From an uncultured Chloroflexia bacterium (GTDB taxonomy: Bacteria > Chloroflexota > UBA6077 > JACCZL01): a stretch of DNA of 64,000 bases. Positions 1 to 47,754 of the stretch are shown here, piece by piece. Location of the stretch: assembly GCA_963765765.1 (NCBI GenBank), contig CAVXYC010000023.1, positions 32,001 through 96,000 on the forward strand. Direction: 5' to 3'. The notes below the pieces were generated by a model that saw nothing but the letters and a program-made list of their open reading frames with translations, was not told where the DNA came from and did no database searches. Numbering within the stretch: the first letter of the stretch is position 1; each line of letters starts with the position of its first letter. The translations under genes were made by a program, and so were the position numbers.

Positions 1-1426
1 GGAGACGATGCGCGCCACATCGCCCGCGCCCGAGCCCAGCTCGGCTTCAGCGCCTCGGCGTCCGGGCCAGGACATACGTGCGCAGGGCTTCGACAAAGGC
101 GAGATACGGCAAGGAGAGCGAGCCCTCCTCGTAGCAATGGCCGACCAGCGTGCGCCCCCACGCACCGCGGCGTAGGTGGCCAATTGCTCGCACAGGGCGG
201 TCTTGCCGATGCCCGGTTCGCCGACCACCATGACCAGCCAGCCCTGACCGGAAGGGCTCGTCAAACGCGGCCTGGAGCTGGCGCAGCTCGCTTCGCGCCC
301 GACGAAGGTCGGCCGGTAGAGTGGGGGCGTCGTCAACCGGCGAAGGCTGCGTGCGGCTGACGGTCGCCGCGCCACGGTCGATAGGTTGATCGCCGCGAGC
401 GCCTGGCAGCACCTCGATTGCCGAGCGGGCGCTTGGCCGGTTCCTTCTCCAGAAGCGCAGAATCAGCGACTCAGTCCCGGCGGACAGTCCGGGCCGATGC
501 CAGGAGGGCGCTACGGGCGGCGTGTTCAAGTGCTGGGTGATGATGGCCACGCTCTCATCGCCCACGAACGGCGGCCGGCCACACACCAGCTCGTAGAGCA
601 CGCAGCCCAGCGCGTAGAGATCGAGCGCGCGTCGACCGACCACCGATGGCCTGCTCCGGGGCCATGTACGAGACGGTGCCGATCATCATCCCCGGCTGGG
701 TATGGCGCGTCTGGTCCAGGGCCACGGCCAGACCGAAGTCGCCGAGCTTGGCCATGCCCTCCGCGGCTCAGCCAGATGTTGCCCGGCTTCAGATCGCGGT
801 GGATCGATGTCTCGGGCATGGGCATGCTCCAGTGCCTGGCACAGCTCCTGTCCAAGATCCAACACCTGCGCGATGGGCAGGCGATGATCGGGCGCGTTTT
901 GAAGAAGGTCGGTCAAGGTCGCCCGCCGGCATCAGCTCAGTGACGAGATAGGGTTGGCCCTGCTCCTCACCGAGGTCCAACACGGCGACGATATTCGGGT
1001 GGGAGCCCAGCCGGCCCATGGCCCGGGCCTCGCGGCGCACGCGCTGCCGGCCGGCTCATCCAGGCCCTCGGTCTTGATCAGGGCCAAGGCGACCTCACGG
1101 TCCAACAGGGTGTCGTGCGCGCGGTAGACCCGCTTCTTGCCGCCCTCGCCCAGCAGCTCCCGCACCTGGTAGCGCCCATTGGCGAAGGTTGGATATTGGC
1201 GTCGCGTGGGGCGGTCCAACGGGAGAGGGCTCGTGCCGCACGGCGGCTGAGACCGACGATCCGAGTGCCCGCTGCGCGGTCAGAGAACTGGCGCGTCCGA
1301 ATTTTCGGGGTCGAGAGCTGGGGCTTCGGCGCGCTCCTTTACCACGGCACCAATCTCGCTGTCGAGTGCCGCATCGGCCTCGTCGAGCAGCGCGTCGATC
1401 TGCCGCTGGATCCGCTCACTGGGCAT
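1..1426 (-). CDS. Kinase-STAND NTPase multidomain protein, copy D (5' part only; runs off the window; frameshifted)
   Basis: ATG at 1426, [20 protein letters not shown]. Fragments across frames read [44 protein letters not shown] (about 200-225) and [14 protein letters not shown], matching copies A-C. Confidence 0.85.
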
Positions 1427-1446
1427 TGTGCATCTCGACTTCCGCA

Positions 1447-4400
1447 TCATGACCAGGCCACGCTAACGCCATGCGTGAGCCGTCGAGGCCCTTGAGCTCT
1501 ACCTGCCGCCCCTCGTCAAACCGCACGTCAGCGCGGCTTTCGGTGAGCTCCTTCAGCAGCGCCGACACCAGAATCTCCCCGCCCCAGTGCCTGGTCCGCG
1601 ATGCGCGCGGCCAGCACCACATCGCGCCCGTGGAAGTCGTCGGCGTCTCGCAGCGCCTCGCCGGTATGCAGGCCCATGCGCACGCGAATTGCCGGCTCCG
1701 AATGGGCTTCGGTCACTGCCCGTTGGATAGCAATCGCGCACTCGAGTGCCCGACGCGCGCTCTGGAATGCCAGCATGAAGCCGTCGCCCTGGCACTTCAC
1801 TTCAAACCCACCGTGCGTCTGCACTTCCTTGCGCACCAGAGCGTGGTGGGTTCGCAGCACATCCAGCCAGCGCTGGTCGCCGAGCTCTAGCGTTAGGCCG
1901 GTGGAATTTTCGATATCGGTGAACAGCAGCGTCACGGTGCCATCGGGTGCGGCGTGCGAGGCGAGGCTCGGCCGCTCCGACTCCAGCACATGGCTGAGTG
2001 CGTCGATCGAGGTGCTCGGGCTGGACTCGGATAGACCCTGGAGCTGCAGCTTTCTACGCAGCGACCGCTCCAGGTAGCTCGTCATCTTCATGTCGCGGAG
2101 CTCACCGATCGCAAAGTCGAGATGGGCCACGCCCTCGGCCTTGAGCTCGTCAGGAGTGAGCGGACGACTGCCGTCCTCGGTTCTGAGAGCTGATGGCCGA
2201 TCGCTGACGGCCTCGTCCAGCAGCAGCTCCGCCAGCTCCAGGCGGCACAGCGCCAGCTCCGGCCGGTGGCGGCCATGCGTGCAGGCAGCGATCCCCTGCT
2301 GGTAATACGCTCGCGCCTTCGCGGGCTGGGCCAGGAGGCGCGCCGCGCCGCCCAGGTCACGGCCCAGGCAGTTGGTGATCGAGGGCTCGGTGAAAAGCAG
2401 ATCGGCCAGGGGCGCCAGCTTCGGCTCGATCATCGCCACGGCCTGCGTGTGGCCCGCGGCCACGGCGGCCTCCAGCAGGTAGCGGAGCAGGGTGGCGGCG
2501 GTGGTGTCGTTCGGGTCGCTCAGGTCCCGCGCGGCCAGGAACTGGTCGATGATCGCGGTGGCTTCGGCGATGCGGCCGGCGTGGGCCAGGTAGATCGCCT
2601 GCTGCGCCGCGAAGGCGCCCCCGGTGGCCCACAGGTTGGCGGGCGTCGGGATGCTAGCCAGGACCTCCGCGGGGCGTCCCAGGTAGAGCAGGGCGCGGCG
2701 GCGGGCGCGGCCCGCGGCCTGCCGACCCAGCCCGGCGCTGCCGGCCTGCTCCCCGAGCCGCTGTGCGGCGTCGGCCAGCTCCAGCGCCCGCCCGAGCGCC
2801 CCGTCCCAGGTGGCCAGGACCGCCCGAAATTCCAGATCCAGGATCCGGGCGGCGGGCTCGTGGCTGCGGGCCGCCGCGGACTCCACGGCGCGCGCGATGG
2901 CTTCGGCGCGTTCGCGGTCCCCCCAGGTCAGGAACGCGCCGCGCCATCCCCCCATCCCGCCCCCAGGGGTCGCGAGGAGGGCGTCCCCCGCGCCCATCCC
3001 GTCTGCCCCATCCTGGCTGAAGCGCAGGTCCCAGATGAGCTGGGCCGCCTCCAGGCGATGGGCGTGCTCCGAGGGGGTGGCGGTGGCGCCGTTAGGCCAC
3101 GTGGCCGGCCGCCGAGAGCTGGGCCTCCCGATCGCCGAGCTCGCGCGCCAGCTCGAACGCCTGCCGCTCCATGCGCCACGATTCGTAATGCCGCCCCGCG
3201 TCCCGCAGTGCCAACGCGAGCCACAGATCCGCGTGCACGCGGTCCACCGTCCCCGGGGCGGCATGCCGATCCGCCCGCTCGACCCACTCCCGGTGGCGCT
3301 CGCTGCCCAGCCCGCGCGGTGACGCCGCCGAACGTCGCCGAGGGCGATCATGGCGAGCTGGCACGCGGCCACGGCCCGGTGCGCGTCGTGCAGCGTCTCG
3401 GCCAGGGCGAAGGCCTCCTCCGCCACGGACGTGAACACCCGCTCCGACTCGCCGGACGGGATCAGCGCCCGACACAGCGCCAGCAGCAGGTCGCAGCGTC
3501 GATCGGCATCGTCGGGATCCAGCACCTCCTGGGCTTCCAGCGCCCGCTCCAGGTGCCGCGCCGCCTCGCCGTAGGCATAGACGCCCATCGCCCGCCGGGC
3601 CGCCAGCTCGCCGTAGCGCACCGCCTTGCCCAGGTCGTCGGGGTCGCTGGAGTTGGCGAAGTGCTCGGCCAGCTCGGCAGCATGCTCGTCCACCCGCCGG
3701 CCGTAGACCCGCTCCAGCGCCCGGCCCACCTGCTGGTGCCAGCGGATGCGCCGCGCGGCGAAGATCTCCTCATAGAGCGTCTGGCGGAAGAAGGCGTGCA
3801 TGAAGCGGAACGCGAGACCCCCGCCGCCGGGGCTCCTGCGCTCCTCGATGATCGCCCGCGCCTGGGCCTCCTCCAGAGCCGCGATCACCGCCTCCTCGGG
3901 CCGGTCGGCCACCTGCTGCAGCGCGTCCAGGCGAAAGTCCCGCCCGATCACGGCCGCGATGGTCAGCACCTGGTTGGTCTCCGGACGCAGCCGGCTCAGG
4001 CGCTTGCCAATCACGTCCCGCAGCCCCTCCGGAATCCCGGCGTCGGCCTCGCCGCCGTCGGCCCGCACCCATTGCCCGCCCTCCCGGACGACGATCCCTT
4101 CCTCGACCAGGTAGCGCAGCACCTCCTGGACGAACAGCGGGTTGCCCTCGGTCTGGCGGTGGATGGCCTCGGCGCGGCCCCAGGGCACCTCCTGGCCGCG
4201 GATCGCCCGCATCATCCGGTGCACCTCGTCCACGGTCAGGCCACGCAGGGCCACACGGGCGAAGGGGGTGGTCCGGCGCAGCTCGGCCAGGGCCGCGCTC
4301 AGCGGGTGGGCGCGGTCCACCTCGACGTCGCGGTAGGTGCCCGACCACCAGCAGGCGGCTGCCCCTCGAGGCTGCGGCTAGACGTGCTGGAGCAGGTCCA

Positions 4401-5993
4401 GCGTGCCGCGATCGGCCCAGTGCAGGTCCTCCAGCACCAGCACCAGCGGCTGCATCGTGGACGCGGTGCGCAGGAAGCCGGTCACCGCCTCCAGCAGGCG
4501 CCAGCGGTCCTCCTCGGCATCGCCGCTCGGCGGGCGCGGCTCCACCGGCGACCCGCTCGCGCACCTCGGAGACGATGCGCGCAACGTCCCCGGCGCCGCT
4601 GCCCAGGGCCGTCGTCAGCGCCTCGGGCTCCTGGCCGAGCACGTAGCCGCGCAGCGCCTCGACGAACGGCAGGTACGGCAGGCTCAAGCGAGCCTTCCTC
4701 GTAGCAGTGGCCCACCAGCGTCGTGCCGCCGCGCACCGCGGCGTAGGTGGCCAGCTGCTCGCACAGGGCGGTCTTGCCGATGCCCGGCTCGCCCACGACC
4801 ATGACCATCCCGCCCTGGCCCGAGAGCGCGGCGTCGTACGCCGGGCTGAGCTGGCGCAGCTCCGCTTCGCGGCCGACGAAGGTCTCGCGGTAGAGCGGGC
4901 CGGGCTCCGATGACCGGCGGGGACTCGGGCTCGGGGGACCCGGTCGCATGACCGCTCCGTGCGGAGTCGATCGCCGGCGAGCGCGATCAGCACCTCGCCG
5001 GCGGAGGCGGGCCGATTGGACGGATCTTTCTCCAGCAGACGCAGGATCAACGTCTCCAGGCCGGTGGGCAATCGGGCCGATGCCAGGTGGGGGCCACCGG
5101 CGGCGTGTTGAGGTGCTGGGTGATGATGGCCACCGATTCGTCGCCCACGAAGGGCGGCCGCCCGCAGACCAGCTCGTACAGCACGCAGCCGAGGGCGTAC
5201 AGATCTGCGCGCGCATCAACGAGACCTCCGATGGCCTGCTCGGGTGCCATGTAGCTGACCGTGCCGATCATCATCCCGGGCTGGGTATGGCGCGTCTGGT
5301 CCAGCGCCACAGCCAGGCCGAAGTCGCCCAGCTTGGCCGTGCCGTCATCCGTGAGCCAGACGTTGCCGGGCTTAAGATCGCGGTGGATGAGGCTTCGTGG
5401 GCGTGGGCGTGCTCCAGCGCCTGACAGAACTGTTCCTAGTACAAGCGCCTGCGCGATCGGCAGGCGATGCTCGGGGCCGCGTCCAGGCAGACTGTGAGGT
5501 CGCCCCCGGCCATGAGCTCGGTGACGAGATACGGCTGGCCGTGCTCCTCGCCGAGGTCGAGGACCGCGACGATGTGCGGATGGGCGCCGAGGCGGCCCAT
5601 GGCCCGGGCTTCCCGGCGCACGCGCTGGCGGCCGGCCTCATCCAGCCCCTCGGTCTTGATCAGGGCGAAGGCGACGTCGCGATCGAGCAACGTGTCATGG
5701 GCGAGATAGACGCGCTTCTTGCCGCCTTCGCCGAGCAGCTCTTGCACCTGATAGCGGCCATTCGCGAACGAGCGTGGGCATGTGCGGCGGCTGTGTGGGA
5801 CAATCTGCGGTCCGATGGAATCCGCTGCTGCGGGCTCGCGCACTGCCGCCGTCAGGAACTCGGGCATCCACTTGCTCGGGTCGAGCCGCGAGGACCGCGT
5901 CGCAGCACTCGGACGCGGCCCAGTCGTGACGATCCAAGGCCGCTCGGCTTCATCGAGCAGAGGTCGATCCGCGCTGAACCGCCCACTGCGCAT
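1447..5993 (-). CDS. Ser/Thr kinase - STAND (AAA_16) NTPase - TPR/helical sensor - class III adenylate cyclase, copy C (frameshifted)
   Basis: Joined from ORFs 5436..5993, 5047..5310, 4482..5219, 4378..4584, 1528..4320 and 1416..1622. Kinase motifs; Walker A GEPGIGKT; Walker B LVLEDLHWAD; GNPLFVQEV; cyclase LLFTDIENST, VKCQGDGFM, RVRMGLHTGE, RDVVLAAR. The stop at 1447 is inferred after correcting a frameshift. Confidence 0.85.
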
Positions 5994-6090
5994 CGGGCTA
6001 GCCGCTTTCTATCCGCCCGATCGCGTCGGAAGACCTGATGTCGCCATCTAGCCCTGGATGGACGCGCTGTACGCCCACTGGCCATTCTCG

Positions 6091-9000
6091 TCAAGTCACA
6101 CGCCTGAAAGACGCCGTGCCGTCGGCGATCCGCGGTGAGCACGCTTCGCGGCCATCATCGAATTGAGCTCGCGCGTCACTCGACCAGGCCGCGCAGCAGC
6201 TCGGAGACGAGGATCTCGCCACCCTGGGCCTGGTCGGCGATGCGCGCGGCCAGGACCACGTCCTGCCGTGGAAGTCGTCGGCTTCTTTCAGCGCTTCGCC
6301 AGTATGCAGTCCGATGCGCACGTCGAATCGGCGAGTCTGGGTATGACGTATTCCCGGCTTCGACGGCCCGCTGAATGGCCACCGCGCAGTCCAGGGCCCG
6401 ACGGGCGCTCTGAAGGCCAGCATGAAGCCATCGCCCTGGCACTTGACCTCGAACCCACTGTGATCTGCACCTGCTCGCGAACGAGCGCGTGATGTGCGCG
6501 CAAGATCTCCAGCCAGCGCTGATCGCCCAGTCGCACGGTTAAGCCGGTGGAGTCTTCGATGTCCGTGAAGAGCAGCGTGACGGTGCCATCGGGCGCGGCG
6601 TGGGGTCTGAAGGTCGGGTCGCTCCGCTGGCGACCGCCAGGCTACCGCGTCGATGGAGGTGCTGGGCGAGACGGAATCGACGCCCTGGAGCTGGAGCTTG
6701 CGGCGGAGGGCCCGTTCCAGCATGGGCTGCATCTTCATCTCGCGCAGCTCGGCGATGGCGAAGTCGAGGTGCTCGAATGGCAGCATTTCGCTCGTCCGGA
6801 TAGTGATCCAGGAGCAGCTCGGCCAGATGGACCTGGATGATGGCGATCTCGGGGCGGAATCGCACCTTTGCACACGCCTCGAGGGCCTGCGTATAGAAGG
6901 AACGCGCGTCATCATACTGACCGAGTTGCGCGGCGGCGTCACCCACCAATCGGCCGATGCTGACATGCATCTCAAACGACCCCACGCGGCTAATCCAAAG
7001 TGAGTTCGAGAGCGGCGCAAATCGAGGCAGGAGCGCGCTCAGGGTTTCCCGGTCGGCACCGAGGATGCTCGCCTGGAGCAAGTACAAGAGAAAGCCTATT
7101 GCAGTTTCGTCGTGGTCTGATCCGATATCACCGAACCGCTCACGATAGGCCCGAGCCTCACTATGTCGAGCCAGCAACGCTAAGATGTGTGCCGTTCTCG
7201 CATTGCTGGCACGCCCCGGCATTTGTTGGTATGCCTCCCGCAATTCTTCGAGGACCGCATTCGGTACCCCGCCCGAGGTACAGGAGTGCCTGGCCGCTCA
7301 TTTCGTGTGGCGTAAACACCCCGACGCCCAGCTCCAGCGCCATCGCGGCGCCTGATTCGTATAGTGTGACCGCCTTTTCGAGACGCCCATCGACGAACGC
7401 CAGGAGGGCGGACGTGGTCAGGGCATGCGCTCGCAAACTTCGATCCTGCGTGTGATCGGCGAGCAGTGTGAGCTCACGCCACAACGTCTCCGCTTGGTGG
7501 CGCCGTCCGCTACTGAGCAGCTCGATACCCCCGGAATAGAGGCACCAGCCCAGGTCAGTCGCCCGAGCACCGTGGTGCGGGCGCCGCAGCACTTCCAGCG
7601 CCAGGCCCGTCACCATCTCACGATCCCGCAAAGCCTGAAGATTCCGAAACGCCCATCCCACGGCGGCGAAGACCACCGAGTCATCATTTAGGCTGAGGGC
7701 GCCTTCCACGGCGCGGCGCAGGAACACGTGCGCCGCCGGGCGGCCGGCACCGATCTCCGCGAGCCCCTGGTAAATATCGGCATAGACGCGTTGGGCGGTC
7801 CTCGTCTGTGCGTGGCGATCAGCACGGTCAGCCCAGTCTTGAAAGCTCTGGGCGGTCGCAGTTCGCAGGCCGGCGCCCGTCGAGCGAATCAAGGATTCCA
7901 ACGCCTGGATAGCCGCGCGGGCGGCGCGGTCTGCGTCGCCGAGCGCTTCGGCCAACGCGAACGCCTCGGGCGCGACCGTGGCACTCACGCGCAGCGGGTC
8001 TTCCAGCGGCAGCATCGCCTCGCCCAGCGCCAGCAGCAGATCGCAGCGCTTCGAATGGTCATCCGGGTCCAGCACCGCCTGGACTTCCAGCGCCTGCTCC
8101 AGGTGCCGGGCCGCCTCGCCGTAGGCGTACACGCTCAGCGCCCGCTGTGCCGCCAGCTCCCCGTACCGAATGGCCTTCTCCAGATCACTCGGCATCCGAG
8201 GAGTGCGCGAAGTGCTCGGCCAACTCCGCCGCGTGCTCTTCCGGTCGCCGCGCGTGGACGTCCTCCAAGGCCCGCGCCACCTGCTGATGCAGCCGGATGC
8301 GCCGCGGCGCGCTCAGCTCCTCGTACAGCGTCTGGCGGAAGAAGGCATGGGTGAAGCGATAGGTCACCGCGCCGGCCGGCCCGCTCGCTCCTCCACCACC
8401 GCCCGATCGCGCGCCTCGTCCAGGGCGCTGTACAGCTCCTCCTCGGGCAGCGCGGCCACGCGCTCCAGCACGTCCAGGCGGAACTCCCGGCCCATCACCG
8501 AGGCCACGCTCAGCACGCGATTGCCCAGCTCGCCCAGGCGTGACAGTCGCTTGCCGATGACATCGCGCAGTCCCTCGGGGATACCGGCCTCGGGATCGCT
8601 GCCATCGGTGCGCACCCACTGCCCGCCCTCGCGCACCACCAGGCCTTCCTCCACCAGGTAGCGCAGCACCTCCTGGACGAACAGCGGGTTGCCCTCGGTC
8701 TGGCGATGGATCGCCTCGGCCCGACTCCAGGGCACCTCCTGTCCGCGGATCAGGTTCATCATCCGATGCACCTCATCCACGGTCAGCCCGCGCAGCGGGA
8801 TGCGGCTGAAGGCGCCGCTGCGCCGCAGCTCGGCCAGCGCCGAGGAGAGCGGGTGGGCGCGATCCACCTCCACGTCCCGATACGTGCCCACGATCAGCAG
8901 TCGCGCCCCGGCCAGGCTGCGGCTCACGTGCTGGAGCAGATCCAGTGTCCCGCGATCGGCCTCGTGCAGGTCTTCCAGGACGATCAGCAGCGGGCGCACC

Positions 9001-10553
9001 TGACTGGCGTTGCGCAGGAAGCCGGTCACCGCCTGCGAGCAAGCGCCAGCGCTCCTCCTCCGGATCGCCCGGGTGGGCGCTCCGGACGGCGATCCGATCG
9101 CGCACTTCGGAGACGATGCGGGCCACGTCCCCGGCGCCGGTGCCGAGATCGCTGGTGAGATCTCCGGATCGCGCGCCAGGACATAGCTGCGCATGGCCTC
9201 GACGAACGGGAGATAGGGCAGGGAGAGCGAGCCTTCCTCGTAGCAGTGGCCCACCAGCGCCGTGCCACCGCGCACCGCGACGTAGGTGGCGAGCTGCTCG
9301 CACAGGCTGGTCTTGCCGATGCCCGGCTCGCCGACGACCATGACCAGGCTGCCCTGCCCGGAGATCGCCCCGTCGAAGGCCGCTTCGAGCTGCTTGCGCT
9401 CGGGCTCGCGGCCCACAAAGGTCGGCCGGTAGAGCGCGGGCTCGATCGACGGAGCGGGAGGCTCGTATCCGAGGCGGTGCACCATTGGCGTCAGGTCAAT
9501 CGCGCTCAGCGCCTGGAGCACTTCGCCGGCCGAGGCGGGCCGTTTCTCGGGATCCTTCTCCAGCAGCCGCAGGATGAGCGCTTCCAGGGCCGGGGGCACA
9601 TCCGGGCGATGCCAGGCGGGGTCGACGGGCGGGGTATTCAGATGCTGGCCGATGATGGCCACGGCTTCGTCGCCGACGAACGGCGGGCGGCCGCAGACCA
9701 GCTCGTAGAGCACGCAGCCCAACGCGTAGAGATCCGACCGTCCATCGACGGCGCCGCCCGTGGCTTGTTCGGGGGCCATGTAGGCCATCGTTCCGACCAT
9801 CATGCCCGGCTGGGTGTGGCGGGTTTGGTCTAATGCCACCGCCAGACCGAAGTCGCCCAGCTTGGCGGTGCCATCGGCGGTCAGCCAGATGTTGCCCGGC
9901 TTGAGGTCGCGGTGAATGACCTGGTGGTCGTGGGCATGCGCCAGCGCCTGGCAAACCTGGCCGGCGATCGTTACGGCTGCTTCAATGGGCAACCGGTGCT
10001 CCGGGGCATCCGCGAGCCGAGTCGCCAGGTCACCACCGGCCACGAGCTGGGAGACGAGATACGGTTGCCCGTCCTGCTCGCCGAGATCGAGCACGGAGAC
10101 GATGTGCGGATGATCGCCGAGGCGGCCCATCGCCCGGGCCTCGCTGCCAATCCGCAGGCCACCGGCGTTATCGAGCCCTTCCGTCTTGATCAGGGCAAAC
10201 GCGACATCGCGGTCGAGCAGGGTGTCATGGGCGAGGTAGACGCGCTTCTTCCCGCCCTCGCCGAGGAGCCTGGCGACCCGGTAACGACCGTTGGCGAAAC
10301 TCGTCGGAGCGGCCGACTTCGGGCCATTGTTTAGGGTCGAGGCGGGCCCATCAAGGGTTGGGGGAGTGGCGGCGTTGGTCGCCAGTGCGCGTTCGGCAGC
10401 CGCCAGGTAGGAGTGCGCATCCGCGCTGTCCGGGTCAAGGGCCAGAACATTCTGGGCCCGATCGCGGACCAAGCCCCAGTTCGACTCGCCAATCCCCGCT
10501 TCCGCTTCGTCGAGCAGCCGATCGATCTGCCGCTGGATGCGCTCACTGGGCAT
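6091..10553 (-). CDS. Ser/Thr kinase - STAND NTPase - TPR/helical sensor - class III adenylate cyclase, copy B (frameshifted)
   Basis: ORF 8364..10562 (ATG at 10553, [18 protein letters not shown]) carries the kinase and NTPase. It continues in 8185..8619, 7161..8195, 6539..7243 and 6091..7020, with cyclase fragments EVKCQGDGFM and IGLHTGEALKEADDFHG. The 3' end is approximate. Confidence 0.88.
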
Positions 10554-10706
10554 GATCACCAACCCTCGAGCGCCGGAAGCTCGGACGCTCCATCACGTAA
10601 CGTGCACGCCGGAGTAGCGCCGGTCGGGATTTCTCGCCTCGCTCGGGCGTGCCTACGCCAGGGGGCATCTTCCCTGTGCTCCGAACGGCTGACGCCGGTC
10701 CGCGCG

Positions 10707-13700
10707 TCATGCCCACTGCACCTGATGTATTTGATAGAGACCGTCCAGGCCTTTCAGCTCGACCTCGCGAACGGCGTCGAATCGGAGATCGCCCCGGCCT
10801 TCGAGCAGGCTCCTGAGCACGGCCGAGACGAGGATCTCGCCACCGCGGGCCTGGTCGGCGATGCGGGCGGCCAGCACCACGTCGCGTCCGTGGAAGTCGT
10901 CCGCGTCCCGCAATGCCTCGCCGGTGTGCAGGCCCATCCGTACGCGGATCGGCACATCGATGTTCTGTGTCGCCACGGAGCGCTGGATCGCCACCGCGCA
11001 GTCCAGCGCTCGGCGCGCGCTATTGAAGGCCAGCATGAAGCCGTCGCCCTGGCACTTGACCTCGAAGCCGCCGTGATGCTGAACTTCTCGGCGGACCAGC
11101 GCGTGGTGGGCACGAAGCAGCTCGAGCCAGCGTTGGTCTCCCAGACGCACGGTGAGATCGGTGGAGCCCTCGATGTCGGTGAACAGGATGGTCACGGTCC
11201 CGTCCGGAGCGGCGTGACGACGGAGGTCGGGCAGCTCCGCATGCAGCGCCCGGGCCACCGCGTCGATGGATGTCCCGGGCGGGACGGTATCGACGCCCTG
11301 GAGCTGGAGCTTGCGGCGCAGCGCCCGCTCGAGAGCGGGCTGCATTTTCATCTCTCGGCATTCATCAATGGCGAAATCCAGGTGCTCCAGCGCCTCGGCC
11401 CGCTCGTCAGGGTACTGGTCCAGGAGCAGCTCGGCCAGCCCCAGGCGGCTTAGAGCAAGCTCAGGGCGACAGCGAACCCGCTCGACACGCCTCAATCGCG
11501 CGACGGTACCAGGCCACAGCTTTTTCAGGTTCGCCCAGCAACGCCGCCGCAGCCCCGAGGTGGCGATGTAGGCAGATGATGCCGGCACCCGCCTCTGCAA
11601 ACGCCGGTCCCTGGTCGAGCTCCGCGGCGAGAACCTCGACCAGCGCGTTGTCTTCGAGCAGAATCGCTGCTTCGAGGCTTCGGGTGAGGTAGGAAACGAG
11701 GTCCGAAGCGAAACGGGGTCTCCCAGACTCCGACAGTTTCGCCCCATCGTGCACCACAAGCTCCTGAAGCTGTCGACGCGCCTGTTCAAGGTCTCCAGCG
11801 AGCGCGTGCGCCAGGGCAAGGGAGAAATTCACCCCGGTTGCCAGCCTCGACCCGCTCAGCCAATCTCGCCATTCAGCGGGACGTCCTAGTAATGGAAGCA
11901 CCGTGCCGCACCGCGCGGCAGCCATTCCGATTCCGACCTGCGGAGAGCCAAGCTCGTGAGCCTGTTCTCGCAGTCGATACCCCAGATCGGCCGCCGCTTC
12001 GAGCCGGCCGTCCAGCGCGGCGACGACCGCCTGGTAACTCAACGCCATGAGCTGAAGCCATGCATCCCGACTCCGGTCGGCCAGCTCCGCAAGCTCACGC
12101 CAGGCTCGCTCCGCGCCATCCCGGTCACCCTTCGTCAGCAGCGCAGCGCCGCAGAACTCCAGGATCTGTCCGTGTGTGCGGACGGATATCCGCTCGCGCG
12201 GGCGCGCCAGCAGCTCATCGGCCAGGGCGACCGCCTCGCGCCACTGCCGCGGTGTCATCTCGAACCGAATCACCTGCCAGGCAGCCGCTGCAAAGAGCTC
12301 CGCGTCCCCCAGATCACGCGCGAGCCCCATCGCCCGGCGGAGCAGGATGACCCCATCCTCGGTGCGCAGCTGAACAATGCGGAGTCGCCCCATCGCCACA
12401 TCGGCGTACGCCCGCTCCGGGCTACCGGCGGCGGCGGTCGCATCCGCCAGCTCGGCCCACTTCTGCCATGCCGGGGCACTGGGCGCCGTCGAGGATAATC
12501 TCCGGTGAATTGCCTCCAGCGCCAGCCGCGACACCCGTCCCACTCGCGTGGTATCACCGTCCTGCTCGGCCAGCGCCAGCGCCTGGGGCGCGATCTCGTC
12601 GCTCACCCGCTGCGGCTCTCCGACCGGCATTAACGCTTCGCCCAATGCCAGGAGCAGATCGTACCGCCTGAGCTTGTCATCCGGGTCCAGTACCGCCTGG
12701 ACATCCAGCGCCTGGTCCAGGTGCCGGGCCGCCTCGCCGTAGGCATAGACGCTCATCGCGCGGCTGGCCGCTAGCTCCCCGTAGTGAATGGCCTTCTGGA
12801 GATCCTCAGGATCCGATGAATGGGCGAAGTGCTCGGCCAGCTCGGGGGCGTGCTCGTCGAGTCGCCGCGCGTGGATTTCCTCCAGTGCCCGTGCCACCTG
12901 CTGGTGCCAGCGGATGCGCCGCGGCGGGCTCAGCTCCTCGTACAGGGTCTGGCGGAAGAAGGCATGCGTAAAATGGTAGGCCACCGCGGCGCCGAGACCC
13001 GTCCGGACCTCCACCACCGCCCGCTCGGTGGCCTCCTCCAGCGCCTCGATCACCGCCTCTTCGGGTAGGCTGCTGACCCGCTGGAGCACGTCCAGACGAA
13101 AGTCCCGGCCGATCACCGCCGCCACGCTGAGCACCTGGTTCGTCGACTCGGACAGCCGTGAGAGCCGCTTGCCGATGACGTCCCGCAGTCCCTCGGGGAT
13201 GTCCTCTCCGGTGCCAATCTGCGGCACATAGCGGTCGCCCTGGCGAACGACCAGGCCGGCTTCCACCAGGTAGCGCAGCACCTCCTGGATGAACAGCGGG
13301 TTGCCCTCCGTTTGTCGGTGGACCGCCTCTGCCTGGGCCCACGAGACCTCATGCCCGCGCAGGACGGTGTACAGCCGATGCACCTCATCGACGGTCAACC
13401 CGCGCAGCGGCACACGCAGGAAGGTCTGGATACGCCGCAGCTCGGCCAGGGTGGAGGACAGCGGATGGCCGCGGTCCACCTCCACGTCGCGGTAGGTTCC
13501 GACCACCAGGAGCCGAGCGCCCTCCAGGTTGCGGGCCAGGTGCACCAACAGGTCCAGCGATCCGTGATCCGCATCGTGCAGGTCTTCCAGCACCAGTAGC
13601 AGCGGTTGGACCAGGGAGGCATTGCGCAGGAAACCTGTCACCGCCTGCAATAGGCGCCAGCGCTGCTCGCCCGGATCGCCGGTATCGGACAGCTCCACCT

Positions 13701-15145
13701 CGACCCGGTCTCGCACCTCACTCACGATTCGAGCCACTTCCCCGGCGCCGGTGCCCAGATCACCCTTGAGCCCTCGGGCTCGCGGGCCAGCACGTAGGAG
13801 CGCATGGCTTCCACGAAGGGCAGATACGGCAGGGAGAGCGAGCCCTCCTCGTAGCAATGGCCGACCAGGCACTTCCCGCCGCGCAGGACGGCGTAGGTGG
13901 CCAATTGCTCGGTTAGGCTGGTCTTGCCGATGCCGGGCTCACCCACGACCATGGCCAGGCCGCCCTGGCCGGAAAGCGCAGCGTCAAAGGCGGCCTGGAG
14001 CTGCTTGAGCTCCGACTTCGCGTCCGACGAAGGCGCGGCGGTAGAGCGGGTTATCCGTCGTCGGTGGCGTCCGGCGCGGGGGCAACGCCTTCCGTTCCCT
14101 GGACCGACGGGGCTGGGGTCGGATCGATCGAGTCCAGCGCCTGGCGCACCTCGGTGGCCGAAGCGGGCCGCTTGCTCGGAACCTTCTCCAGCAGCCGCAG
14201 GATGAGCGCCTCGAGGGCCGCGGGGCAGTCCGGCCGGTGCCAGGACGGGGCCACCGGCGGGGTGTTGAGATGCTGGCCGATGATCGCCACGGCGTCATCG
14301 CCCACGAAGGGCGGTCGGCCGCCGACGAGCTCGTAGAGCACGCAACCGAGAGCGTACAGGTCGCTTTGGGGGCGTGACCTCGGCACCCGTGGCCTGCTCA
14401 GGGGCCATGGCGCTGACCGTGCCGATCATCATCCCCGGCTGGGTGTGGCGCGTCTGATCCAGCGCCACGGCCAGCCCGAAGTCGCCGAGCTTGGCCGTGC
14501 CGTCGTCGGTCGAGCCAGATGTTGCCCGGCTTGAGGTCGCGGTGGATCAGGTCGCGGGCGTGGGCGTGCTCCAGGGCCCGGCAGAGCTGCTGGCCGAGCT
14601 CTAGAACCTGGGGGATCGGCAGGCGATGCTCGGGAGCGGCTGCAGGAGCGTGGTGAGATCTCCACCGGGCATGAGCTCGGTGACCAGATACGGCTGGCCC
14701 TGGTCCTCGCCCAGGTCGAGGACACTCACGATATTCGGATGCGAGCCCAATCGCCCCATGGCGCGGGCCTCGCGGCGGACCCGCTCGCGGCCGACCTGGT
14801 CCAGCCCGTCGGTCTTGATCAGCGCGAACGCGACCTCGCGATCAAGCAGCGTGTCATGCGCCCGGTAGACGCGCTTCTTGCCGCCCTCGCCGAGGAGCTC
14901 GCGCGTCTCATACCGCCCGCCGACAAACGCTCGGGGTGACGTCGCGGCGCTTATCCGGGACGGAGGGTCGCTCGCCAGTCTGGCGAGGCGTTTCAGCCAG
15001 TGACGACGCCGCACGATCCACAGAATCTGGCATGGGGGCTGACACTGCTGCCGCACGATCCGCACACGCGACTCAATGTCGCGCCGCACCCCTCGCAGAA
15101 CGCGGCTTCCTGCGGAGGCTCGGTTCCACAGGCGGCGCAGCGCAT
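10707..15145 (-). CDS. Double zinc ribbon - Ser/Thr kinase - STAND NTPase - TPR/helical sensor - class III adenylate cyclase, copy A (frameshifted)
   Basis: ATG at 15145 after a GAGGA RBS. MRCAACG..FCEGCG..VCGSCG..FCGSCG gives four CxxC. Kinase in 14601..15428 and 14051..14386; Walker A in 13722..13952; NTPase and sensor in 11461..13872; cyclase in 10707..11819 ending YQIHQVQWA*. Confidence 0.88.
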
Positions 15146-15282
15146 GGCTTTCCTCAATGAAGGACGCCTGGTCATCCCGTTGGATGGCTGGAATCCGATA
15201 GTACACCCGATACGGCACGCGCGAAAGTGACACGTGGGCCGAAAAGCGAGGAAGCCCCGGATGCGGGGTGTGCCAGTGCGAC

Positions 15283-15733
15283 TTACGGGCTGAAGGGAGT
15301 GCCTCCGCGGCCGAGGCCCCGAGTGGAGTCAACCATTCCCGGGTGCCAGGCCGGCTGGACGTCGATGTACAGCTCCACGTTGTTGCCGTCGGGATCGTCA
15401 AAGAACGCCGAGTGGGAGACGCCGCCATGATCCACGACTCTGCGTCGGCCGAACGCCTTTGCCTTCGAGGTCCGATAGGGCGTTGCGCAGCTCATCGTCG
15501 GTTGTGCCGATCCGAAAGGCCAGGTGGTTCAATCCGAGTCGTCCGCGCTCGGCATCAGGGCCGACCTCGATCAGCAGCAGCTCATGGTGCGTGCGGCCGG
15601 CTGCGCCAGCCAGGAAAGCCGCGCGGCCCATCTCACCAGTTATGTGCAAACCGAGCCGGTCGCGATAGAAATCAACTGAATCCTCGAGATTGCGCACATT
15701 GAGCACGACGTGTCCGAGCTCTTGAATCTGCAT
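15283..15733 (-). CDS. VOC family (glyoxalase/extradiol dioxygenase-like) protein, frameshifted
   Basis: MQIQELGHVVLNVRNLEDSVDFY..HHELLL..GLNHLAFRI, continuing in 15283..15495 as DHGGVSHSAFFDDPDGNNVELY. Confidence 0.85.
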
Positions 15734-21237: not shown

Positions 21238-23026
21238 TTACTTATCCAGCCAGACAGTCGCGAAGCTGATGTTCGCGGTGATGTCTTCCTGGGGAATCGC
21301 CATTCCCTTCACATGTGACCGATATGGGATGGTTTGAATCTGGTCGTACAGCGGCACGCCGTAGACTTGATCCACGAGCAGATACTTCTCCAACTCTCGA
21401 TAGATGGTGACGCGCTCCTCCATCGACTTTGCTCGATCGAATCGATCGAAGAAGTCCGCCACCTTCTGGTCCTCGTGAACAGCAAAGGCATTGTTTGCCA
21501 GGCTTTGCTTGTTGACCAGTACGGAAAGACCTTCCGGGAAGGTGATGGTCGCGCCCTTCCCCGTCTGGATGTAGAAATCCTTGCGAGCAGCGCGCTCGTT
21601 GTACGTGGCGACGTCCACCAGGTCCAAACGCGCTTGAACACCGATGGTGGCAAGCTGGCCCTGGAGCCATTCATGCTCCGCCTGCCAGGTCCGCTGGCCA
21701 AAAGTCGCAGTCTCGAACCCGTTGGGGTGTCCCGCTTCGGCAAGCAAACGCTTGGCCTCGGCACGGTCCCTATCGCGACCACCTTCCGCGTAGCCGGGCC
21801 AGGATCAGCCAGTCCGGATTCGGCCAGGGCGACTTCGGAGCCTGCAGAGTCGTCAGGAAGCCGTTGCCACTCTCCACAGCTTGAATACCTTCACGCTTGT
21901 CAATCGCGAGAGAGATGGCCTTGCGGACCTTGGCGTCCTGCAGCGGGCTTTCGCGGAGCGTATTGAACCAGAGCGTCTCGCGCTGACCGCCGAGCTCAGC
22001 AAACCAAACCTGGTCGCCGAACGCTTGCTCGAGAGAAGCCTTCTGCTCTGGCTTCAGCGTGAAGCCGAGTCCGCGAGTTCCGCCGTCAAGTCGGCCGGCT
22101 CGGAACGCAGCCACGACAGCCGACAGATCATTGATGATTGGGAAATCGATGCCGTCAAGATACGGAAGCTGCTTGCCCTGGGCATCCTTCTCCCAGTACT
22201 TGTCGAACTTACGCACCGATACCACGGAGCCTTTTTCGATCTTGTCGACCTTGAAAGGTCCGAGCGCGACGAAGCCGATGTCAGCCGGAGCCACCATGAC
22301 CTCTCCAGCCGCGATTTTTGGCGCCATCAGGTGCCGGGGATGGGCGATCTGCACGTTGCGCGACGCAATCAGATCCATGAAATACGGGGTGGGATTTTTC
22401 AAGGTGAAGCGCACTGTTCGCTCATCGGGCGCCTCAACCTTGTCGAGGTTTCCGAAGTACGCCTTGAAGCGCGAGACGGGGCGTGTCTTGTCCCCAGATT
22501 TGGCGCCGTTGTAGGCGAGATCTACCCAGAAGACGATGTCTTCCGCGGTCAATTTGGTGCCGTCATGCCAGAGCACATTGTCACGAAGCTTGAATGTGTA
22601 CTGAGTAAATTCGGGATTGTTCTCCCAGGATTCAGCTAACCCCGCGCAGACTTTGTACAGGTCATCGCGGCAGGGCCGTACCAGCGAGCCATCACCGAAC
22701 ACGCTCGCGGATACGTGCGTCAGACTGATCGACGTCTGGAACATAGGGTCCCAGGTCGCCGGCGGATCTTCGCGATGGGCAATGACGGCAACACCGCCAG
22801 TTTTGATGGTTGCATCAGCCGCGACTTTCGGAGCAGCTTGACGCGGGTCCGTGGCCGGGGGTTCGGGCGCCTTGGCCGGTGCCTGCGCCTCCTTGGCCGC
22901 CGGTTGAGCCGGCGCGGCAGACGGCTCCTTGGGCGCTGGGGGCACGGGACGACAAGCGAGCGTGGCCGTCAGCGCTAGCAGCGCAAAGACGCTCACGGTT
23001 CGTTTGCGGGAGTTTCCAAACATCAT
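21238..23026 (-). CDS. ABC substrate-binding lipoprotein, family 5 (frameshifted near 21780)
   Basis: Lipobox TLAC; LAESWE, FKLRDNVLWHDG, GPFKV, VRKAISLAID. The C-terminus is in ORF 21238..21747. Paralogue of the next gene. Confidence 0.88.
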
Positions 23027-23066
23027 CCTCGGGGCTCCTCTCGGCGGTCAGCCCGCCTTCCCTTTC

Positions 23067-29860: not shown

Positions 29861-30647
29861 CTAGGTCGCCTCCTGGAGCAGCCGGCCATATCCGGCGACT
29901 CGTGGTGAAACGTGGGCAAGCCGCAGCCCAGCCCAGAACATCGCCTGCATGCTCGAGACCACCGGAACGCCCAGGTCGGTCTCGAGAGCGTCGATCATGC
30001 CGACACTCGGCAGCGCAGCCCCGGTGATCCAAACGCCGTCCGCGCTCTTTGCCGATTGAAAGAGGGCCCGCGCGGCGCGATATGGGTAGCTCAGCGGCGC
30101 GATCGTGAAGTCAGCAAACTCCGGTGTGCGGCAGGAGCGCGCCGAGACAACGTCAATGCCCGGCGTTGGCGACGTATCGGCTCAATTGCTCGTGCAGCGC
30201 ATCGTCGAATGGGGTAAGCATAGCCACGTGGCGCATACCGAGCGCCTGCATCGCCGCGATACACGCCCCGATGTCGGTGGCCACCGGGAGGGCGGTAACC
30301 TCCGCAACGACATCGCGTAGGCGGTCCTCGAAGCCCCACCCACCCGTGACGATCTGCGGTACGCCGGCCTGGACGAGGACATCGACCTTGCGATTCACCA
30401 GCTCGCGCGTCGCCGCCGGCAGACGACTCAGAAAATCATCAGCCGCACCGGGCGCAAAGACGTCCATCCCCATCGGCGTGAGTGCGATGGTCACACCGCG
30501 CGGGGCCATCAAGTAGAACTCGTAGGCATTGTTCTCGACCACCGCCGACGGCGTAATAAAGCCAATGCGAGCGCGCCACCCGTACGAGGCGCCCTGCTCG
30601 GAAGTAAGTGTCGCGGGCTGATCCCCGACTGGCCGATCCTGGTCCAT
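29861..30647 (-). CDS. Arylmalonate decarboxylase / maleate isomerase family protein, frameshifted near 30150
   Basis: YGWRARIGFITPS..YEFYLMAPRGVT. The C-terminus in a shifted frame reads ADGVWITGAALP..LETDLGVPVVSSMQAM..GYGRLLQEAT*. Confidence 0.82.
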
Positions 30648-30782
30648 GGCGACTCCTACAATCGCGCGACTCGCCCGCTACCTGGCCGCACTGTACGACC
30701 GCTCCCGGAAGCTGTCAATTTGGCTGTCTGTCTCAATTTGGCTGTCTGTCTAATGAGCGCCCTCGAGCATGTGGGGGCGCTA

Positions 30783-43551: not shown

Positions 43552-45015
43552 CTAGCGGCGGTGGCTTCGCTGCTTGCTCCGGACATAGTCCGTGACGTGG
43601 TCACCGTAGCGATCGGCGAACCAGGGCTGGAGGTGATCATCCGCCCGCCAGACGCCGCGACACTGGGCCGTGCCGCAGGTGCAGTCAAACATTTGCTGCT
43701 GCTCGGTGTACATGGTGGCGTAATCCATGGTGATCTCCTCGCCGACGCCTATCGCACGGCGAGCGCATAGGTCCAGGCCCGTAACCCAGGCGTTGGGATC
43801 ACACGAGTGGTTGATCGGCCTCCACGTATCAGGATCGTCATCCCAGAGCGCATAGATCTCGTCCGTCAGCGGGTAAGCAAAGTCGCGAAAGAACTCTCGA
43901 TAGCGGGGACTCCAGGTGCGCTCGACGCGTGAGCGTGAGACCAGCACGTGCGGACGCTCCTCGAGCTGATAGATGACCTCGCCGGCTGCCAGGTCTCGCG
44001 TGGCGAACATGCCGTGCCCGCGCGTCGGATCTAGACAGACTCGGTAAGGACGCTCCAGGCTTCGTTGCCGGGCAAAGGCGAACTCGATCATCTGCTGGAG
44101 AAACCGCTCCTTGCCTGTACCGTCCAGGATAAGGATGTCGTCCGCGGTGCCGCCGTCCTCATCTGAATAGAAGATGCCGCAGTTGGGGTTGATCTCCAGG
44201 AAATAGGGACGTCCTTCGCGGTCCACTCGGATGTCCGTGCGGGCATAGCCATTTCCGCGTAACGCCAAGAACACTGCTGTCGACATTTCACGCAGCCGGC
44301 CCCCAAGCTCCTCGTCCAGGCACGGTAGCCGAACATGCGCCGCCGGCCATTTCCACTTGTAGTCGAACGACTTGAACGTTATGCCCGGCTCGAACTGGTG
44401 CTCGATGGGTAAGTAGGTGAGCGGCTCCTGCCAGCTCAATGGATTGCTGGCGACGAGCACCGAGAACTCGCGTCCTTCGATGAACTCCTCGATCAGCGCG
44501 CCGCCGAATGTGCCGATCATCTCGGCCGCTTGTTCACGCAACTGGGCGGCGTTCTCCACGCGCGAATGCTCGGTGACTCCCACGCTGGAATACCCCTGCT
44601 CCGGCTTAACGATGCACGGGAAGCGCAGGCAGTCGAGCGCTTGCTCCACCCCGGCCCGGTCTCGTGCGAAGGCGTAAGCCGGAGTGTCGACACCCCAGTA
44701 CGCGCACACCCGCTTCATTGCCTCGCGTGTCGGGTCGTAAAAGACCGAATCGGCGCCAGTGAAGGCGCGCTTGAGTCGTTCCAGCGCCTGGACGACCTCG
44801 ATTCCGGGGGTGTCTTCCTCCCACGAGCCGTCACACAGGTTCACGTAAACGTCCGCTTCCGTCGCTCTCACCTGAGCCACGGCCCGTATCTTCTTGATGA
44901 AGACGTCCTCCACATCGTGTCCTCGCAGCCACGGTCGAAGGTCCACGCGGCTGTCATATGGGAGGTAGTTGGCGGTGCTCCCTTCTCGCGAGGCCTGCAG
45001 CACGGCTACCTTCAT
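43552..45015 (-). CDS. D-Ala-D-Ala ligase-like ATP-grasp fused to a SET/post-SET methyltransferase domain
   Basis: ATP-grasp PCIVKP, LIEEFIEGREFSV, YARTDIRV, FLEINPNCG. SET GHGMFATRDL, INHSCDPN, GEEITMDY. Post-SET CTCGTAQCRG. Confidence 0.9.
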   Translation of the reverse strand: MKVAVLQASREGSTANYLPYDSRVDLRPWLRGHDVEDVFIKKIRAVAQVRATEADVYVNLCDGSWEEDTPGIEVVQALERLKRAFTGADSVFYDPTREAMKRVCAYWGVDTPAYAFARDRAGVEQALDCLRFPCIVKPEQGYSSVGVTEHSRVENAAQLREQAAEMIGTFGGALIEEFIEGREFSVLVASNPLSWQEPLTYLPIEHQFEPGITFKSFDYKWKWPAAHVRLPCLDEELGGRLREMSTAVFLALRGNGYARTDIRVDREGRPYFLEINPNCGIFYSDEDGGTADDILILDGTGKERFLQQMIEFAFARQRSLERPYRVCLDPTRGHGMFATRDLAAGEVIYQLEERPHVLVSRSRVERTWSPRYREFFRDFAYPLTDEIYALWDDDPDTWRPINHSCDPNAWVTGLDLCARRAIGVGEEITMDYATMYTEQQQMFDCTCGTAQCRGVWRADDHLQPWFADRYGDHVTDYVRSKQRSHRR

Positions 45016-47358: not shown

Positions 47359-47754
47359 GGCTACAGTCTCATTCACACCGAATACGGTCGCGTTGTCCTG
47401 CGCCACGCTACCGAATCGCCGCTCGGGTGTCAAACTCAGGCCGGGCCGGCCAAGACAGCCGCGGCTGTTGGTCTCTGAACAATGGATGGTCCGCCTCGCC
47501 GCCCCCGAGCTCAGTGCATCACGCCAGCCATAGGAACTGAGATGCGTCACACGACAGACCTGAGCGGCTCAGGCAGCGATTCTCAGCAGAATGAGTTTGC
47601 GGACCTTATGATCTCATAGACGCCAGCGCGCTACAGGTAGGCCGGTGGCGCCTGGAGGTATGGAGCTTAGTAGGCGTGAGTAAGCGGACCGACTGAGCAG
47701 TCGACCCGCTTCAACCTACTCGGCAATCCCGGTGCTACGAGTCGCGGCGGACGG

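Follow-up and report, generated by a model that had tools for sequence, protein, structure and literature searches.

A 64,000-nucleotide stretch of DNA from an uncultured Chloroflexia bacterium (hereafter the window; positions 32001-96000 of contig C23 in the source assembly, G000) carries four head-to-tail paralogues on its minus strand, in the region of bases 1-15500. As read directly from the sequences, each gene encodes a predicted cytoplasmic protein with a short helical N-terminal cap, a Hanks-type kinase, a STAND NTPase of the AAA_16 family, a TPR-like sensor of about 350 amino acids (aa), a helical linker and a class III cyclase, in that order. On balance, we consider it somewhat probable that the array comprises four ligand-gated switches of the MalT/PknK type with paired outputs, namely protein phosphorylation and cyclic AMP (cAMP). 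Sensing of intracellular metabolites or of cell state is favoured over antiviral immunity, because the chromosomal neighbourhoods are metabolic and housekeeping in character and because the sensor types are conserved across genomes.

The array is apparent as families of direct repeats with a period of 4529-4647 base pairs (bp) and 63-89% nucleotide identity, which span the kinase, NTPase and cyclase regions but not the sensor regions. Open reading frame (ORF) pieces on the minus strand match, in recurring order, the Pfam families Pkinase, AAA_16, TPR or TPR_MalT (below cut-off) and Guanylate_cyc. No long ORF extends across the array region, and no copy is a single open frame. The limits of the copies (Table 1) were set by frameshift-aware dynamic-programming alignment of the DNA to P0002, an intact 1504-aa metagenome homologue that is 66% identical to the longest ORF in the window. 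Copies recur every 4.53-4.63 kb; the window contains three of them in full, whereas the fourth (D) runs past the window start. Copy A aligns to P0002 residues 30-1503 with seven frameshift moves and no in-frame stop, and copy D to residues 1-1503 with 29 moves and one stop, which lies in an inserted codon at window position 1280. Spacers between the copies measure about 28, 97 and 145 bp. Repeats and alignment thus both recover the tandem array of at least four genes of about 1450-1500 aa, separated by about 20-150 bp, that had been described in the original prediction.

Methyltransferase, PanE and MFS genes flank the array on one side and cupin and ABC-transporter genes on the other, which indicates that exactly four copies reside at this locus. 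The original prediction had also proposed that paralogues be counted in the genome. Contig C20 begins with a further array of at least three copies and contig C1 holds a family fragment, such that the genome carries at least seven family members. Tandem junctions, in which the end of a cyclase is followed by the next kinase, are present in an independent assembly of the same genus (G001, contigs C261 and C600). The GC content is 0.65-0.74 in bases 1-15500, compared with about 0.60 in the rest of the window and a genome mean of 0.612 (3-kb windows). Scans for promoters and terminators gave counts that were not above those in shuffled sequence.

Table 1. Positions of the array genes, of their parts and of two split genes elsewhere in the window.
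Feature	Position in window	Strand	Basis or remarks
Copy A, whole gene	10707..15428	-	start between ~15083 and ATG at 15428; stop 10707-10709
Copy A kinase (Ser/Thr)	14120..14888	-	FALIK lysine and APE motifs
Copy A STAND NTPase (AAA_16), winged helix and arm	12640..14019	-	GEPGIGKT, LEDLH, GNPLF
Copy A divergent TPR-like sensor, 355 aa	11563..12627	-	0.33-0.35 identity to B, C and D sensors
Copy A conserved helical linker and predicted class III adenylyl cyclase	10713..11550	-	phmmer vs Ma1120 (4WP3), E 4e-44
Copy B, whole gene	6091..10562	-	TTG start 10562; stop 6091-6093; P0002 residues 1-1486, 12 frameshift moves
Copy B divergent sensor, 353 aa	6950..8009	-	alignment
Copy C, whole gene	~1455..5993	-	ATG 5993; P0002 residues 11-1503, 17 frameshift moves
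Copy C divergent sensor, 366 aa	2359..3459	-	alignment
Copy D, N-terminal 460 residues in window	1..1426	-	gene continues to C23:29031, 2969 bases before window start
SBP_bac_5 solute-binding gene, split	21241-23047	-	two ORFs match consecutive parts of one Pfam profile
Arylmalonate-decarboxylase-like gene (Amdase), split	29864-30677	-	two ORFs match consecutive parts of one Pfam profile

The catalytic motifs of both enzymes are seen intact in the copies. The longest open piece of copy B (8364-10592, 742 aa) matches Pkinase (PF00069) with 158.1 bits and AAA_16 (PF13191) with 100.4 bits, the latter against a cut-off of 32.6, whereas the ORF pieces of copy A match Pkinase, AAA_16, TPR_MalT and Guanylate_cyc (PF00211, 66.7 bits). 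An open piece of copy C (1528-4377) encodes 949 aa. The kinases of copies A-D contain the catalytic lysine (in FALIK), the HRD aspartate and the DFG and APE motifs, and have a lysine in place of the third G-loop glycine. All four NTPases carry the Walker A motif GEPGIGKT and the Walker B motif LEDLH, along with a conserved GNPLF.QEV block; the conserved motifs quoted in the original prediction, including RPE..A...LAELLL, are likewise found in every copy.

The cyclase, with the motifs FTDIEGST, KCQGDG and DDFHGRDVVLAAR, has Ma1120 of Mycobacterium avium as its nearest solved structure, and the alignment takes in the cyclase domain and about 20 preceding residues (phmmer E-value 4e-44). Both metal-binding aspartates, the ATP-type Lys/Asp pair and the arginine are kept. 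When the alignment is read against Ma1120 numbering, Lys101, Asp157 and Arg168 are conserved in the copies, and a valine occupies the asparagine position, which is Ala164 in the active Ma1120. The sections of PMC4215837 that treat this enzyme describe Ma1120 as an active adenylyl cyclase in which Lys101 and Asp157 specify ATP and Ala164 replaces the canonical asparagine, such that an A164N change lowers activity; some guanylyl cyclase activity at alkaline pH is also described there. Judged by their conserved residues, both the kinase and the cyclase look catalytically competent. In an AlphaFold model of the 949-aa piece of copy C (mean predicted local distance difference test score 75.6), winged-helix elements are predicted to be followed by many successive helical hairpins, which make the sensor an all-helical repeat, and then by a cyclase fold. 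Foldseek matches for this model include Ma1120, Rv1900c, TPR superhelices and the TPR-bearing STAND protein 6MFV.

The contrast between a conserved chassis and a divergent sensor is observed directly when the copies are compared with one another. Pairwise identity is 0.71-0.82 in the kinase, 0.70-0.76 in the NTPase and its arm and 0.68-0.75 in the linker and cyclase, whereas the sensors, although clearly homologous (z-scores of 17-45 against shuffled sequences) and of similar length (341-366 aa), are only 0.33-0.40 identical. The N-terminal segment of about 90 aa is also divergent (0.32-0.45). A sliding identity profile (50 residues) falls between reference positions of about 850 and 1200. Thus, divergence is not uniform along the genes, and the sensor limits in Table 1 agree with those in the original prediction. 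The same profile is exhibited by 22 intact cyclase-bearing homologues (sensor 0.24-0.34, kinase and NTPase 0.47-0.84, linker and cyclase 0.44-0.59), and therefore the contrast is a trait of the family rather than of this array. Similarly, when 16 homologues are aligned, positions up to 840 and from 1341 onwards are rich in invariant columns, of which hardly any occur in the stretch between. These identity profiles support the proposal of a diversified STAND receptor repertoire in which a shared, conserved enzymatic chassis is combined with TPR-like sensors that diverge. Low identity between the sensors, as had been claimed, is borne out. The term ‘hypervariable’ fits less well, because sensor lengths are kept, the profile is family-wide and sensor types recur.

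This recurrence is evident both from pairwise comparisons and from trees. The copy B sensor is 0.70 identical to that of C20_Y, the copy A sensor is 0.54 identical to that of C20_Z, and the C-terminal half of the copy C sensor is 0.60 identical to G001_C600. A maximum-likelihood tree of sensors groups C with P0002 (support 99/98) and B with C20_Y and P0008 (95/99; B with P0008, 97/97), and the cyclase tree yields the same groupings. Because sensor types recur and the two trees agree, the sensors appear to be old, distinct lineages that have been kept across arrays and genomes. Median terminal branches are 0.83 for the sensor and 0.15 for the NTPase, such that the sensor has evolved about five times faster. 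However, the NTPase tree conflicts with those of the sensor and the cyclase, in that P0002 groups with C20_Z (100/98) and P0008 falls outside the group (99/98). Sensor-cyclase cassettes may therefore have been exchanged between paralogous chassis, although P0002 and P0008 come from contigs of 4.9 and 17 kb, which are possibly chimeric across paralogues themselves. A diversity-generating retroelement was considered as a source of sensor variation and rejected: no template and variable repeat pair was found beyond the paralogous blocks, and no reverse transcriptase was seen in the flanks. In one G001 copy (contig C552; loci L100/L105), the reading frame shifts twice, at reference residues 424 and 852. 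The latter site is exactly where the conserved arm gives way to the divergent sensor, and the shift there could be a short-read artefact of switching between paralogues or a recombination scar.

The mechanism that we propose for these proteins draws on the established biochemistry of STAND proteins and class III cyclases. The parts of PMC4381067 concerned with STAND proteins set out their switch logic, name PknK as a STAND kinase and describe both MalT and PknK as regulators. By analogy, a ligand would bind the sensor, together with the arm, and thereby relieve autoinhibition. The NTPase would then exchange ADP for ATP and the protein would oligomerize, and the induced proximity of subunits would turn on both enzymes together. 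The kinase would be activated through trans-autophosphorylation, and the cyclase is expected to require dimerization, with shared active sites, for its activity. Each paralogue could thus report a different ligand through common outputs, protein phosphorylation and cAMP.

None of the copies can be translated without frame correction, and the origin of the frameshifts bears on whether the genes are functional. Alignment to P0002 required 7, 12, 17 and 29 frameshift moves in copies A, B, C and D, and 35 and 36 in two copies of the array on contig C20; even the longest ORF of copy B holds a compensated pair of shifts. After frame correction, only one in-frame stop is encountered in about 5800 codons of copies A-D, and three in about 8700 codons of six copies from the source assembly. 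The same programme and reference required no moves in eight of nine intact homologous genes from other genomes and two in the ninth, and 2, 0 and 0 moves in three pieces from the congener G001. The breaks are therefore a property of the G000 sequence. Moreover, the single rpoB gene of this assembly (C20:327268-327804) contains three one-base frameshifts within 540 bases, while its protein is 96% identical to that of G001 over 997 aa, which plainly points to a local error in the assembly. Where the GC content of the window is normal, at least three ordinary genes are split as well: the SBP_bac_5 and Amdase genes (Table 1) and an ABC transporter with a cNMP-binding domain. We conclude that the frameshifts are very probably patchy, dense indel errors of assembly rather than signs of decay, and because they would then be consensus errors, the array genes are probably intact in the organism. 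The original prediction was apt in calling for the reads to be polished. The public reads found comprise four soil metagenome runs with 0.05-0.09 of the sampled words. Coverage of the conserved motifs is deep in these runs, and their assembled reads gave short contigs of relatives piled on those motifs, none of which spans a copy.

Several other gauges of frame integrity and divergence were tried and set aside. A hidden Markov model of GC3 phase was too noisy, since even intact control genes gave about 1-1.5 switches per kb and regions of normal GC content could not be separated. A summary of ORF lengths did not discriminate, and protein-guided alignment with controls was used in its place. 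As yardsticks of divergence from G001, the GH65 gene of the window matched at only 36-37% and the ATP-grasp/SET gene had no match in that assembly; rpoB was used instead. Elsewhere in the source assembly, 64 merged intervals have a GC content of at least 0.665 (3-kb windows). Several of these are located at contig ends and one measures 62 kb (examples are C15:762001-824000, C21:1-13000, C26:83001-92000 and C20:1-10000). Codon phase switches densely in all 20 of the islands tested, at 2-7 per kb, whereas the closest intact control genes have about 1-1.5 switches per kb. The metagenome-assembled genome (MAG) has an estimated contamination of 6.85%, and foreign DNA, chimeric joins and error-prone high-GC patches are candidate explanations for these islands.

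Genomic context was evaluated for 151 neighbouring ORFs at 20 loci, comprising 38 ORFs at seven loci in the relatives G018 and G029 and 113 ORFs at 13 further loci (113 of 276 prepared ORFs and 13 of 23 loci; four ORFs overlapping family genes were excluded). These neighbours include transporters and solute-binding proteins, amidohydrolases, enzymes of central metabolism and biosynthesis, tRNA synthetases, two-component systems and one GGDEF-EAL protein. Among them, we recognized no restriction, CRISPR or Abi-type family, no defence cluster and no recurrent partner gene. The only defence-like neighbour (L069:5849-6886) lies between two convergent family copies and matches TIR_2 and part of a Tn3 transposase DDE domain. 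A candidate link with SBP_bac_5 transporter and cupin genes, seen in G000 and G029, was rejected because it recurs at only one of the 13 further loci. PADLOC-DB 2.0 returned kinase-domain models (PD-T4-6, mad6, MkoA and PglW) and, for the 949-aa piece of copy C, which consists of arm, sensor and cyclase, a 22.5-bit match to PycC. No Avs model was matched, and the 825-aa NTPase-sensor piece of copy A had no match to any model. Pfam reported no NACHT or NB-ARC domain, but instead AAA_16, AAA_22, nSTAND3 (below cut-off) and others. Thus, the ‘NLR-like’ label in the original prediction holds in the broad sense that these are STAND proteins, whereas the NTPase itself is of the AAA_16 kind found in MalT and PknK. 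With regard to a Pycsar- or CBASS-like plan, neither the spacers nor the flanks of the copies were found to contain a gene for a cNMP-sensing effector. Within the window, a cNMP-binding domain occurs only in what is apparently one frameshift-split exporter gene (ABC_membrane, ABC_tran and cNMP-binding domain; 45015-47568, minus strand), about 30 kb from the array, which is possibly a cAMP-responsive transporter.

Some observations weigh against interpreting the array as a set of working, ligand-gated switches. Matches to TPR_MalT reach only 26.6-27.8 bits against a Pfam gathering cut-off of 45. The transition-state asparagine of the cyclase is replaced by valine in all copies and in P0002, such that the case for its activity is one of analogy with Ma1120, and for all members the ligands, the oligomerization and both enzyme activities are what we infer from better studied proteins. 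Frameshifts occur in the A-D array at 1.6-6.6 per kb, which is 5 to 90 times the density elsewhere (1.6-8 per kb for both arrays, against a background of about 0.07-0.3 and about 0.07 in the other 48 kb of the window), the breaks in the array copies lie outside homopolymers, and rpoC and gyrA are open in the same genome. The elevated GC content is consistent with DNA that is foreign or was moved recently, as would be anticipated for accessory or defence genes, and TIR-ended members together with the TIR_2/Tn3 neighbour are hints that parts of the family may serve in conflicts. Many breaks per copy, placed outside homopolymers and far denser than in flanking genes, would, along with the foreign GC content, be consistent with four decaying pseudogenes, a dead array from a higher-GC donor that has no present function. 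We regard this as very unlikely. Bacterial pseudogenes under neutral decay are expected to accumulate far more substitutions and stops than indels, whereas the 65 frameshift moves in copies A-D are accompanied by a single in-frame stop. In addition, the catalytic motifs are all intact, the chassis remains 68-82% identical between copies, the essential single-copy rpoB exhibits the same clustered type of frameshift, and the congener’s copies have only 0-2. The valine substitution might instead signify that the cyclase produces no cAMP and serves as a regulatory module for dimerization or nucleotide binding, or makes another cyclic nucleotide, leaving the kinase as the sole real output. The finding that 86 of the 120 closest members (~70%) lack a cyclase fits this possibility, since it implies that the kinase alone suffices for the ancestral function. 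Nevertheless, we give this explanation very little credence: the metal-binding aspartates, the ATP-specifying Lys/Asp pair and the arginine are conserved, Ma1120 also lacks the asparagine and yet works as an adenylyl cyclase (and, at alkaline pH, to some extent as a guanylyl cyclase), and 68-75% identity between the paralogous cyclases is as expected under selection for catalysis.

The original prediction had also raised a role in immunity. In such a system, the sensors would recognize proteins of phages or mobile elements, and oligomers would trigger an abortive or alarm response through the kinase and cAMP, in the manner of Avs and NLR-related proteins. The tripartite STAND plan with its fast-evolving repeat sensor (terminal branches about five times those of the NTPase), the tandem paralogues with different sensors, the compositional island formed by the array, the patchy distribution among relatives (G000, G001, G018 and G029 of 31 genomes) and the TIR-ended variants (3 of the best 120 homologues) are all compatible with this proposal, and the portions of PMC13581612 on defence STANDs report that TPR sensors dominate among them. 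We nonetheless judge it unlikely, because PADLOC yields only generic kinase matches and one 22.5-bit match to PycC, and because the 151 neighbouring ORFs offer no defence genes or effector partners, and hence no contextual support, apart from the single TIR_2/Tn3 ORF. Furthermore, sensor types persist across arrays, a congener and metagenome proteins, and the closest characterized relatives, MalT and PknK, are regulators. A bolder version, which we rate as distinctly less probable still, envisions combinatorial receptors assembled from exchanged sensor-cyclase cassettes, with the arrays forming an immune or danger-sensing repertoire of soil Chloroflexota that would fire phosphorylation and cAMP at once. 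Its basis is that the sensor and cyclase trees agree, whereas the NTPase tree places P0002 and P0008 differently (support 95-100). Ligand-gated switches are favoured over immune receptors because the neighbours are not defence genes, the PADLOC matches are generic and MalT and PknK act as regulators.

The resemblance to PknK of Mycobacterium tuberculosis, and to the large kinase-AAA_16-TPR family of which it is representative, extends over the N-terminal Hanks-type kinase, the MalT-type AAA_16 domain and the TPR-like sensor, which is C-terminal in that family. The nearest intact relatives in G018 and G029 have this plan (1310-1358 aa) and are 66% identical over the kinase and NTPase. The genes in the window differ from PknK in that a linker and a class III cyclase follow the sensor, which places one effector at each end, and in that they stand in tandem arrays. 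MalT of Escherichia coli belongs to the same NTPase clade and also has a TPR-like sensor (sub-threshold TPR_MalT matches in our proteins); its ligand binding by arm and sensor and its ATP-dependent oligomerization provide the model used here. However, the ligand of MalT is maltotriose and its output is a LuxR-type DNA-binding domain, whereas the window proteins would employ two enzymes. Ma1120 and Rv1900c share the features of the cyclase domain, namely the metal-binding aspartates, ATP specificity of the Lys101/Asp157 type, Arg168 and a residue other than asparagine at position 164. The solved Ma1120 constructs comprise 171-210 residues, Rv1900c (LipJ) is annotated as a lipase/cyclase fusion and neither is fused to a STAND domain or kinase in those records, whereas the window cyclase forms the C-terminal part of a 1500-aa switch.

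Other proteins combine some of the same domains in different orders. TIGR03903, the NCBIfam family of kinase/cyclase fusions from thiazole/oxazole-peptide (TOMM) systems, likewise has a Ser/Thr kinase, a cyclase homology domain and a similar NTPase and helical region. It is the best non-generic NCBIfam match of P0002 (300.5 bits), and it matches the 742-aa piece of copy B with 236.5 bits and the 949-aa piece of copy C with 101.1 bits, against a cut-off of 705.75; the best matched stretch in P0002 is the NTPase and arm only (profile positions 482-960). We take the cyclase to follow directly after the kinase in TIGR03903 proteins, and their genes presumably reside beside those for a cyclodehydratase and a TOMM precursor. 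No TOMM family was found in the array flanks or among the 151 neighbouring ORFs of relatives. Cyclase-headed STAND proteins, which we take to be of the mycobacterial Rv0386 type, also unite a class III cyclase with a MalT-type STAND domain and a TPR sensor, and are encoded in the source genome itself (e.g. C25:55114-56184 and C8:26176-27315). In these, the cyclase is N-terminal and replaces the kinase, whereas in the window proteins it is C-terminal and occurs alongside the kinase. Finally, the Avs and bacterial NLR-related antiviral STANDs share the arrangement of effector, STAND NTPase and TPR-like sensor, as well as sensor diversity among paralogues. The window proteins differ from Avs in their NTPase clade, in matching no PADLOC Avs model, in lacking an effector of the nuclease or protease type and in lacking a defence-island context.

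Relatives of the array genes are widespread. A search for long homologues yielded 5260 proteins at an E-value of 0.001 or below among 8000 candidates. Of the best 120 long homologues, 34 carry a C-terminal cyclase, three end in a TIR domain, one carries a GerE domain and the remainder end after the sensor; the named members derive from Dehalococcoidia or Chloroflexota MAGs. Thus, although a protein with an effector at each end is uncommon, as the original prediction had supposed, the design is recurrent, and a fusion of kinase, cyclase and STAND domain was already known to NCBIfam as TIGR03903. Among species-representative genomes, at least 567 loci encode a relative (567 of the 599 matched stretches that were listed). 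The 79 loci kept for analysis derive mostly from Dehalococcoidia and Chloroflexota MAGs (GC content 0.44-0.70); seven of these have two or three NTPase modules, four more have a second kinase at the locus end and seven encode a C-terminal cyclase. Within 31 genomes of the same order (a tally that includes the unpublished G006), near-full matches of at least 60% identity occur only in G000, G001, G018 and G029, and in the remaining genomes one domain is matched at about 40%. The source genome is rich in signalling proteins of this type, with 18 cyclase-domain matches and 32 AAA_16 matches, cyclase-headed STANDs included. The cyclase-type copies in G001 reside on short contigs, exhibit tandem junctions and are 70-79% identical to the window in nucleotide sequence, and the flanking cupin gene is 67% identical in G001; therefore, the family was probably already present in the ancestor of the genus.

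Two further arrangements were encountered among the relatives. A 294,789-base contig from a MAG labelled as Deltaproteobacteria (L081, L072) holds five cyclase-less kinase-NTPase copies within about 47 kb, three of which are in direct tandem, and hence arrays are not peculiar to G000. In some members, a double zinc ribbon (DZR, DUF7577) precedes the kinase, where it replaces the helical cap or stands beside it (e.g. L017:8689-12618 and L095:14224-15426).

STAND kinases such as PknK and STAND cyclases are each known, yet as far as we searched, the presence of a kinase and an adenylyl cyclase at opposite ends of one protein is undescribed in print: no description of a kinase-STAND-TPR-cyclase protein was found in the open-access PMC and bioRxiv literature. 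Databases already label such proteins automatically, and the kinase-STAND-cyclase design is abundant among the homologues and loci counted above. If the combinatorial interpretation were true, these proteins would represent a bacterial STAND receptor with dual second-messenger output that is absent from the papers that could be searched. The dense indel patches in this assembly, which affect even rpoB, also mean that its apparent pseudogenes should not be taken at face value. More generally, the design offers a clean test of whether one oligomerization switch can activate two enzymes by induced proximity. For the uncultured soil Chloroflexota that carry them, arrays of paralogues whose sensors differ suggest that several distinct ligands feed one output.

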